Source: an uncultured Muribaculaceae bacterium
GTDB lineage: Bacteria; Bacillota_I; Bacilli_A; RF39; UBA660
Assembly (NCBI GenBank): GCA_964458035.1
Contig: CAYWFZ010000004.1
Coordinates: 361-64,360 of the forward strand
Direction of reading: 5' to 3'
Length of the DNA: 64,000 bases
Shown: positions 60,380 to 60,700 of the stretch, one piece after another
Layout of the letters: every line of letters starts with the position of its first letter
Position numbering within the stretch: the stretch's first letter is position 1
Position numbers and translations under genes: made by a program
The notes under the pieces: generated by a model
What the model saw: only the letters and a program-made list of their open reading frames with translations
The model's database searches: none
Told to the model about the DNA's origin: nothing

Positions 60380-60433
60380 AATATCACCATCTAAATTATA
60401 TCACACAATAATAAAAACGGATATGTATCCGTT

Positions 60434-60592
60434 TTATTCTGTTGGTTCTGTTTCTTGAACTTCATCATTGCATTCGCAATCAACACACTCGCACTCTTCT
60501 GTGTTACAACTTCCATCACAAGTGCATTCTTCCCCATCTTGGCAGCCGCATTCACAAGTTTCAGAACAATTGCATTTCTTTTCTTCGTCCAT
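60434..60592 (-). CDS. Unannotated 52-aa cysteine-rich acidic protein (metallothionein-like)
   Basis: Hand translation gives MDEEKKCNCSETCECGCQDGEECTCDGSCNTEECECVDCECNDEVQETEPTE. GGAGG lies 6 nt upstream of the ATG (60590-60592). Promoter TTTACA-17-TATACT (60651-60656 and 60628-60633). Terminator AACGGATA/TATCCGTT plus T-run immediately after TAA. Confidence 0.7.
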   Translation of the reverse strand: MDEEKKCNCSETCECGCQDGEECTCDGSCNTEECECVDCECNDEVQETEPTE

Positions 60593-60700
60593 TATTATCC
60601 TCCTTTCATTATTACAAACACAAGTTAAGTATAAAACTTAAGTTATTGCTTGTAAACGAATGTGCAATTATTCGACAAAAAACTAATGATAATCATTAGT

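Follow-up and report, generated by a model that had tools for sequence, protein, structure and literature searches.

A cysteine-rich module in a 52-residue protein and its relatives from uncultured gut and rumen bacteria: a candidate metallothionein family

The locus considered here raises the question whether a very short open reading frame (ORF), dense in cysteine codons, is a genuine gene and, if so, what its product might do. The ORF lies in a 64,000-nucleotide stretch of DNA, here called the window, from an uncultured Muribaculaceae bacterium (GenBank assembly GCA_964458035.1, contig CAYWFZ010000004.1, positions 361 to 64,360 of the forward strand), and it encodes an acidic, cysteine-rich protein whose sequence is given in Table 1. 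It is proposed that this protein works by a metallothionein-like mechanism, binding several ions of a soft metal through its 12 thiolates and so buffering or sequestering the metal in the cytosol; this proposal, with the metal binding that it predicts, is considered probable.

The 12 cysteines make up 23% of the 52 residues, against 1.0% cysteine in window ORFs of at least 150 amino acids, and are arranged in the five groups CNC, CECGC, CTC, CEC and CEC. There are 19 aspartates and glutamates, two lysines, and no histidine, phenylalanine, tyrosine or tryptophan; the molecular mass is 5.77 kDa and the pI 4.05. No other ORF in the window is as rich in cysteine, the runner-up having half its cysteine fraction, and the protein has the sequence attributes of a metallothionein, namely a mass below 10 kDa, cysteines in CxC and CxCxC groups, and neither histidine nor aromatic residues. 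Residues 7-25 form what proves to be a conserved module, C-x-C-x3-C-x-C-G-C-Q-D-G-x-x-C-x-C; residues 29-41 form a second, degenerate cysteine block; and residues 42-52 form an acidic tail ending in ETEPTE. An AlphaFold2 model built from a 32-sequence family alignment has a mean predicted local distance difference test (pLDDT) score of 56 and essentially no secondary structure, which is consistent with a protein that would fold only around metal, and is not evidence in itself. An earlier note on this DNA, made from the sequence alone, had given the position, strand, length, cysteine count and grouping, and the lack of histidine and aromatic residues exactly as found here; its further statement that the ORF track holds only a spurious antisense ORF at this place was mistaken, the ORF list containing the frame itself. 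An identical protein is already present, unnamed, in public protein collections, and the window protein is uncharacterised rather than never called.

That the frame might be a chance ORF or non-coding sequence is suggested by its small size alone, and this explanation is effectively excluded. At the base composition of the window (28.5% GC), the binomial probability of at least 12 cysteine codons in 52 is about 1.5e-8. A Logan contig (L001) is 98.4% identical to the window over 5.3 kb, and within the ORF the two differ at three bases, two of them synonymous third positions (D38, C39) and the third giving N42S. The order SDR gene, small gene, cls (a cardiolipin-synthase-like gene) is kept in the window, L001, L010 and L012, with flanking proteins in L010 and L012 that are 65-81% identical to those of the window; in L007 the small gene stands beside cls remnants and has a different gene upstream. 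The L007 cls (6258-6728) matches the window cls in three short pieces only, suggestive of a pseudogene with a frameshift or of errors in assembly. A codon table of 112 distinct module DNA copies from 81 loci showed both TGT and TGC in every cysteine column, each at about 40-60%, and four codons in each of the glycine and threonine columns, Thr18 of the module included. Residues that the search pattern did not impose are conserved all the same: Gln12 in 102 of the 112 copies, Glu or Asp13 in all 112, Lys15 in 89, Glu16 in 96 and Thr18 in 106. Synonymous variation combined with amino-acid conservation, as read from these alignments, marks a protein under purifying selection. Conservation of the frame in relatives, which the earlier note had put forward as a check, is thus borne out by homologues with synonymous variation at the module codons. 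The frame has about 200 homologous clusters; the ribosome-binding site, promoter and terminator are conserved; and the module occurs in the same frame inside long, unquestionably translated proteins. Given the synteny, the synonymous codon variation and the translation of the module within GrpE, histidyl-tRNA synthetase (HisRS) and other proteins, there can be very little doubt that the small gene is real.

The family to which it belongs came to light only with exhaustive searching. Neither Pfam nor NCBIfam had a match for the window protein at E <= 10, and a word-index homologue search with the single sequence returned just one near-identical protein (P0001). Seven proteins at E < 1e-3, all built of the unit KKCNCxExCxCGCQ[ED]GKECTC, emerged when 1.84 billion representatives were searched exhaustively with phmmer, and a profile made from this set found 204 clusters at E <= 1, with an E-value of 8.7e-13 for P0001. 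Nearly all of these clusters are of proteins of 31-100 amino acids without a precomputed Pfam domain, and the sole names among them are 'hypothetical protein'. The columns that are invariant in the 32-sequence alignment (A2) are, in the numbering of the window protein, C7, C9, C13, C15, G16, C17, Q18, G20, C23 and C25. Residues 5-25 of the window protein have every one of them and follow the family pattern K-K-C-N-C-x3-C-x-C-G-C-Q-[ED]-G-x-E-C-T-C, with seven cysteines, two glycines and a glutamine.

A short protein rich in cysteine and in aspartate, glutamate, threonine and asparagine, from a Bacillota-type anaerobe, might also be the precursor of a ribosomally synthesised and post-translationally modified peptide (RiPP) of the ranthipeptide, sactipeptide or SCIFF-like kind. 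In alignment A2, however, the module begins 4-7 residues past the initiator methionine (residue 7 in the window protein), and there is therefore no leader peptide. NCBIfam, SCIFF included, gave no match for the window protein at E <= 10 or for the 32 aligned members, and no family resembling a radical-SAM peptide maturase, a YcaO protein or a lanthipeptide enzyme is common to four or more of the 80 relatives' loci, the shared neighbour families having been Pfam-scanned in part and otherwise read by eye. The module is moreover integral to GrpE, HisRS and other proteins, and a RiPP precursor is considered very unlikely. The earlier note had likewise held the protein not to be SCIFF-like and to have no adjacent radical-SAM gene; its neighbours in the window are SDR, cls, ogt and Big_14 protein genes.

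When 185,579 species-representative genomes were scanned, 92 relatives came up, of which 80 loci were returned; the locus analyses below cover these 80. All 80 come from metagenome-assembled genomes (MAGs) or assemblies of uncultured organisms, and the record titles that name a source refer to guts and rumens (roe deer, goat, sheep, yak, water deer, water buffalo and dairy cattle). Taxon labels include Bacilli, Erysipelotrichaceae, Tenericutes, Clostridia, Gastranaerophilales, Rickettsiales/Alphaproteobacteria, Akkermansia, Rikenellaceae and others. Four loci (L003, L026, L037, L045) are labelled Muribaculaceae at 24-30% GC, labels at odds with the GC content and with a Bacillota-like gene content; binning or labelling errors are the likely cause of such odd labels. 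No copy more than 67% identical to the window protein was found among the 185,579 genomes, a set that thus seems to lack the source species. A profile search of PDB sequences with the family gave no match, nor did tblastn of plasmid and phage collections, where the low-complexity filter may hide matches. The motif string is absent from the searched literature, in which nothing relevant was found either on GrpE, cysteine-rich proteins, metallothionein or Erysipelotrichaceae in this connection. To judge from these searches, the family is previously undescribed, and no curated family covers the window protein. It has been invisible so far because all its hosts are uncultured and its proteins are short and of low complexity.

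Evidence on function comes from the neighbours of the relatives. When neighbouring ORFs were clustered across all loci, the commonest partner of standalone module genes, a generic ABC-ATPase family aside, was a protein of 90-100 amino acids present in eight loci, in all eight of them directly adjoining the module gene and co-oriented with it. This partner belongs to PF02583, the metal-sensitive transcriptional repressor family (CsoR/RcnR), with Pfam E-values of 1e-22 to 1e-25. The linked loci fall into two gene orders and two phylum-level groups. With csoR first (L024, L045, L076, L078), the ribosome-binding site of the small gene overlaps the csoR stop codon, and the promoters upstream of csoR share a ATATACCCCC box abutting the -35 element. 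With the module gene first (L046, L047, L049, L065), in MAGs labelled alphaproteobacterial, the promoters carry TATATACT-N4-5-GGGG(G)TATA over the -10 element. These C/G tracts stand out in DNA that is about 75% AT and resemble described CsoR operators; as candidate CsoR sites they may be called operator-like. Both types of CsoR sequence retain the Cys...His-x3-Cys ligand pattern, which is that of Cu(I)-CsoR and is also found in the nickel sensor InrS. In L047 and L065 the csoR gene is followed by DUF1847 and flavodoxin genes, and in L076 a candidate cation-diffusion-facilitator (CDF) exporter gene, read by eye, lies just downstream.

The module is also a portable one, as became clear from six-frame analysis of the loci with Pfam confirmation. 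In about 33 loci it forms a standalone protein of 33-80 amino acids with 1-3 units, and L046 and L049 encode multi-repeat module proteins of at least 136 amino acids. In about 20 loci, within hrcA-grpE-dnaK-dnaJ operons, it constitutes an N-terminal extension of GrpE, the match lying near position 6000 in most of them. Fusions with 1-6 module copies, some of them His-rich as well, were noted in L002, L005, L008, L013, L015, L016, L018, L020, L023, L025, L028, L031, L032, L036, L042, L044, L052, L064, L066 and L067. In eight loci (L011, L022, L027, L033, L043, L062, L071, L073) the C-terminal tail of HisRS carries the module; the HisRS domains were confirmed by Pfam for L011 and the other seven were assigned by their near-identical N-termini. 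These tails are 80-100 residues long and rich in cysteine, aspartate and histidine. Five high-GC MAGs have the module on YlbF/YmcA-family proteins. Other carriers are a MinD/ParA ATPase and RuvX+DUF1292; a C69 peptidase and a TPR protein contain it as an insertion, and in L057, L075 and P0117 it stands behind a predicted membrane anchor. Finally, L035 (5314-6078) encodes a SlyD-like FKBP whose tail consists of four His-rich HHHHHDEGCGCG-type repeats, (HHHHHDEGCGCG)x4, followed by the module CNCGPDCTCGCQEGKECTC. This fusion is particularly telling because the C-terminal tail of SlyD is itself a metal-binding segment.

Terminal placement on many unrelated housekeeping proteins might also be expected of a structural zinc-knuckle serving protein or nucleic-acid interaction rather than storage, with the standalone form acting as a regulator or adaptor. 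The number of tandem units, from one to more than five, and the degenerate repeat boundaries are better suited to a sponge whose capacity scales with its length, and the CsoR operons of the relatives also speak against a zinc-knuckle, which is judged quite unlikely. Variable copy number, degenerate repeat edges and terminal placement would together fit a capacity-scaling metal-binding appendage.

The fusions to stress and chaperone proteins (GrpE in the operon hrcA-grpE-dnaK-dnaJ, and the SlyD-like FKBP), the gut anaerobes that serve as hosts, and the predicted disorder of the window protein all lend something to a different proposal, that the cysteines act mainly as a thiol/disulfide sink or, like the Zn-Cys switch of Hsp33, as an oxidation sensor, protecting an obligate anaerobe, with metal as just a structural placeholder. 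Against this, the regulators adjoining the module genes keep the histidine ligand of the metal-sensing CsoR type, a ligand that the persulfide sensor CstR lacks; the module of L035 is placed after a poly-His metal tail; and genes for thioredoxin or peroxiredoxin are not among the recurrent neighbours at the loci. A redox buffer or switch is considered unlikely.

Iron-sulphur (Fe-S) chemistry is brought to mind by other hosts of the module, if it ligated a [2Fe-2S] or [4Fe-4S] cluster for storage or transfer as a carrier or small Fe-S protein. The YlbF/YmcA complex has been reported to carry Fe-S clusters in Bacillus, and the MinD/ParA-type P-loop NTPase also matches NUBPL iron-transfer and NifH-like models. 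PP-loop ATPase and DUF362 neighbours in L014, L026 and L040 point the same way. In detail, a PP-loop ATPase gene (PF01171) follows the standalone module gene in L014 (3167-8032), L026 and L040 and precedes it in L029, and in the former three it is accompanied downstream by DUF362 and an ABC ATPase/permease pair; the association may be clade-specific synteny or a functional link to sulphur or Fe-S chemistry. The dense CxC spacing, on the other hand, is typical of metallothioneins and unlike the CxxCxxC...CP type of Fe-S ligand set, the module gene has no recurrent suf, isc or nif neighbours, and CsoR-family sensors are not known as iron sensors, so that an Fe-S role also appears improbable. The CsoR operons of the relatives and the placement of the module on a SlyD-like metal tail are taken as independent support for the predicted metal binding.

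In the metallothionein-like mechanism proposed, the window protein would be a small cytosolic protein without a fixed fold until wrapped round several metal ions in cysteine-thiolate clusters, functioning as a metallothionein to buffer or sequester soft metals. The N-terminal seven-cysteine module CxCx3CxCGCQxGxxCxC would be the conserved unit, to which the second, five-cysteine block would add capacity, and by analogy with other metallothioneins the 12 thiolates might be expected to hold about four divalent ions or about 6-8 Cu(I). Expression would proceed from the gene's own sigma-A-type promoter with its conserved upstream TTTGTCGA box, outside CsoR control in the window's clade. As far as genomic context can tell, the physiological metal of the family is most likely Cu(I), since CsoR-type sensors are co-transcribed with relatives of the gene; Zn, Cd, Ni and Co are possible.

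Comparison of the upstream regions of the window, L007, L010 and L012 bears on the expression of the window gene. The ribosome-binding-site block is conserved in all four. The TTTACA -35 element and the TATACT/TATAAT -10 element align in the window, L010 and L012, while L007 has its own TTTACT-17-TATAAT. The TTTGTCGA box is kept even in L007 despite the different upstream gene. It has no palindromic partner, and comparison by eye with consensus sites for Zur, Fur, CopY, CsoR and Rex gave no convincing match; it may serve as an activator site or as an UP-like element. As TTTGTCGAW it occurs three times in the window against 0.64 expected, and because neither of the further copies lies at a promoter no regulon is inferred. 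The earlier note had pointed to a perfect palindrome in the promoter spacer, AACTTAAGTT, as a plausible operator for a metal-responsive repressor. The palindrome is there, at the place given; as an operator it was rejected, being absent from the promoters of L007, L010 (AATTTAACAA) and L012 (AATAATTGCT).

Several points weigh against the proposal as applied to the window gene. A tblastn search of the 64-kb window for CsoR and CopZ found nothing significant, no metal sensor, exporter or chaperone gene adjoins the small gene, and its promoter is without the C/G-tract boxes of the csoR-linked loci. The window protein is unusually acidic, with a net charge of about -17, and its second half departs from the family repeat, so it may not share the properties of the CsoR-linked members, which are rich in lysine. 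As to the metal, copper is not proven, the C-H-C ligand pattern being common to CsoR and to nickel-sensing InrS-type proteins, and the sub-threshold matches of relatives to a metallothionein family, described below, could reflect convergence of low-complexity sequences. In the window's close relatives, too, there is no metal regulator next to the gene, and regulation of the window gene may be constitutive or dependent on a further factor. The metallothionein-like reading of the earlier note has thus stood as regards the sequence attributes of the protein and has gained CsoR-linked relatives; a metal regulator of the window gene's own is what it lacks.

The wider proposal, judged about as likely as not, is that the module defines a third, unrecognised family of bacterial metallothioneins confined to uncultured gut and rumen bacteria of several phyla, mostly Bacillota MAGs, where it would serve both as a CsoR-controlled standalone sponge for copper or other soft metals and as a portable metal-buffering tail on core proteins, among them GrpE, HisRS, SlyD, MinD and YlbF.

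The features of the locus, and the corresponding elements of csoR-linked relatives, are collected in Table 1.

Table 1. Coordinates of the small gene, its candidate control elements and its neighbours in the window, and of promoter elements in csoR-linked loci
Feature	Position	Strand	Remarks
CDS, 52-residue acidic Cys-rich protein MDEEKKCNCSETCECGCQDGEECTCDGSCNTEECECVDCECNDEVQETEPTE	60434..60592	(-)	ATG start; from sequence and ORF list, composition, family alignment A2, codon table, orthologues L001/L007/L010/L012
Ribosome-binding site GGAGG	60599..60603	(-)	6 nt 5' of ATG; AAAGGAGGAT/AAAGGATGAT block kept in orthologues
Sigma-70-type promoter TTTACA-17-TATACT	60628..60656	(-)	Consensus scan, 10/12 matches
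Palindrome AACTTAAGTT in promoter spacer	60635..60644	(.)	Real, not conserved in orthologous promoters
Invariant TTTGTCGA box	60672..60679	(-)	About 16 nt 5' of the -35; found throughout the clade of the window (five loci)
Intrinsic terminator (stem 9 bp, loop 4 nt) followed by TTTTTATTATT	60414..60435	(-)	Begins inside the stop codon
AT-rich 11-bp hairpin and T-run at end of upstream SDR gene	60680..60702	(-)	Divides SDR gene from promoter of small gene
Cardiolipin-synthase-like gene cls, downstream of small gene	58880-60379		
csoR->Cys-module operons with ATATACCCCC box	L024:5560-6000, L045:3385-3825, L076:250-690, L078:5545-5990		
Pseudo-palindrome TATATACT-N4-5-GGGG(G)TATA	L047:5900-6000, L065:5900-6000, L046:5680-5775, L049:2475-2571		

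Almost all long ORFs of the window lie on the minus strand. The terminator of the small gene has a folding energy of -12.2 kcal/mol (z = -3.5), and terminator-like sites are 20-fold over the shuffled expectation in this stretch. Between this terminator and the cls start codon lies an extended -10-like sequence, TGTGATATAAT (60385-60405, minus strand), from which cls appears to have a promoter of its own. With the SDR hairpin before it, its own promoter and terminator, and the -10-like TGTGATATAAT ahead of cls, the small gene looks monocistronic. The ribosome-binding site, promoter and terminator had all been described in the earlier note, as had the position of the promoter just after the SDR hairpin; the terminator stem is 9 bp long where 8 had been counted. 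An Rfam scan of positions 60000-61000 gave two matches only, both weak and sub-threshold, to Salmonella small RNA families.

Bacterial metallothioneins are rare, and a family of about 200 clusters would show how gut and rumen bacteria handle copper and zinc, metals with which livestock feed is heavily supplemented and which hosts deploy in nutritional immunity. If the third-family proposal were true, reduced-genome anaerobes would have in the module a general strategy for buffering metals in the cytosol. Why core chaperone and translation proteins should carry a metal sponge is a question posed by the GrpE and HisRS fusions. A two-gene operon of csoR and a metallothionein gene would be a minimal and testable copper-response unit, and the 19-residue module is a compact candidate for a metal-capture tag in biotechnology.

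By its sequence, taxonomic range, regulation and modular use the family is an undescribed variant of what would functionally be a known kind, the metallothionein. According to reviews of 2020 and 2025, bacterial metallothioneins comprise essentially just SmtA/BmtA and MymT, and none is from Bacillota or gut anaerobes (PMC7558416, PMC12193353). The family described here resembles SmtA/BmtA (PF02069, structure 1JJD) in being bacterial and small, SmtA/BmtA forming multi-metal thiolate clusters under the dedicated sensor SmtB. SmtA differs in having histidine ligands, aromatic residues and a zinc-finger-like fold, whereas the window protein has no histidine or aromatic residues, and neither it nor the 32 aligned members matched PF02069 at E <= 10, in agreement with the earlier note's view that it is not of the SmtA/BmtA type.

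That note had gone on to call it a eukaryote-like CxC type, a description that holds for the cysteine spacing and not as a family match. Of the 32 members, 27 matched PF02067 (metallothionein family 5, of insects, the Drosophila Mtn type) weakly, their first module falling on profile positions 18-40, the C-terminal half; the best E-value was 4.5e-4, and scores in the members inspected were 7.6-15.9 bits, where the gathering cut-off is 25. No match was given by the window protein or by L010. What is shared is the spacing CxCxxxCxCG, and by this comparison the likeness to PF02067 is one of common cysteine spacing and not of membership; convergence of low-complexity sequence is likely because the hosts of PF02067 are animals and those of the module bacteria. 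SCIFF and other radical-SAM peptide precursors are likewise short cysteine-rich ORFs of anaerobic Bacillota, from which the present family differs in having no family match, recurrent peptide-maturase neighbour or leader peptide.

In mycobacteria the Cu(I) metallothionein MymT is under the control of RicR, which is a CsoR paralogue and a repressor of the CsoR family. Like MymT, the window protein is a small (about 50 amino acids), cysteine-rich, cytosolic bacterial protein, and its family is paired with CsoR-family repressors in eight loci. The cysteine pattern and the phyla are different, the window copy is without a CsoR partner, and the likeness rests on size, cysteine content and context rather than on sequence; MymT is not known to occur as a fusion module. 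For modular use the closer parallels are the C-terminal His/Cys tail of SlyD and the Helicobacter proteins Hpn and Hpn-like, which are His-rich, oriented to nickel and zinc, and proteobacterial. Unlike these, the present module is all cysteine and has a fixed 19-residue signature; like them, it occurs as a disordered, putatively metal-binding segment both in a standalone mini-protein and in the tail of a chaperone, and in L035 it extends a His-rich SlyD-like tail.

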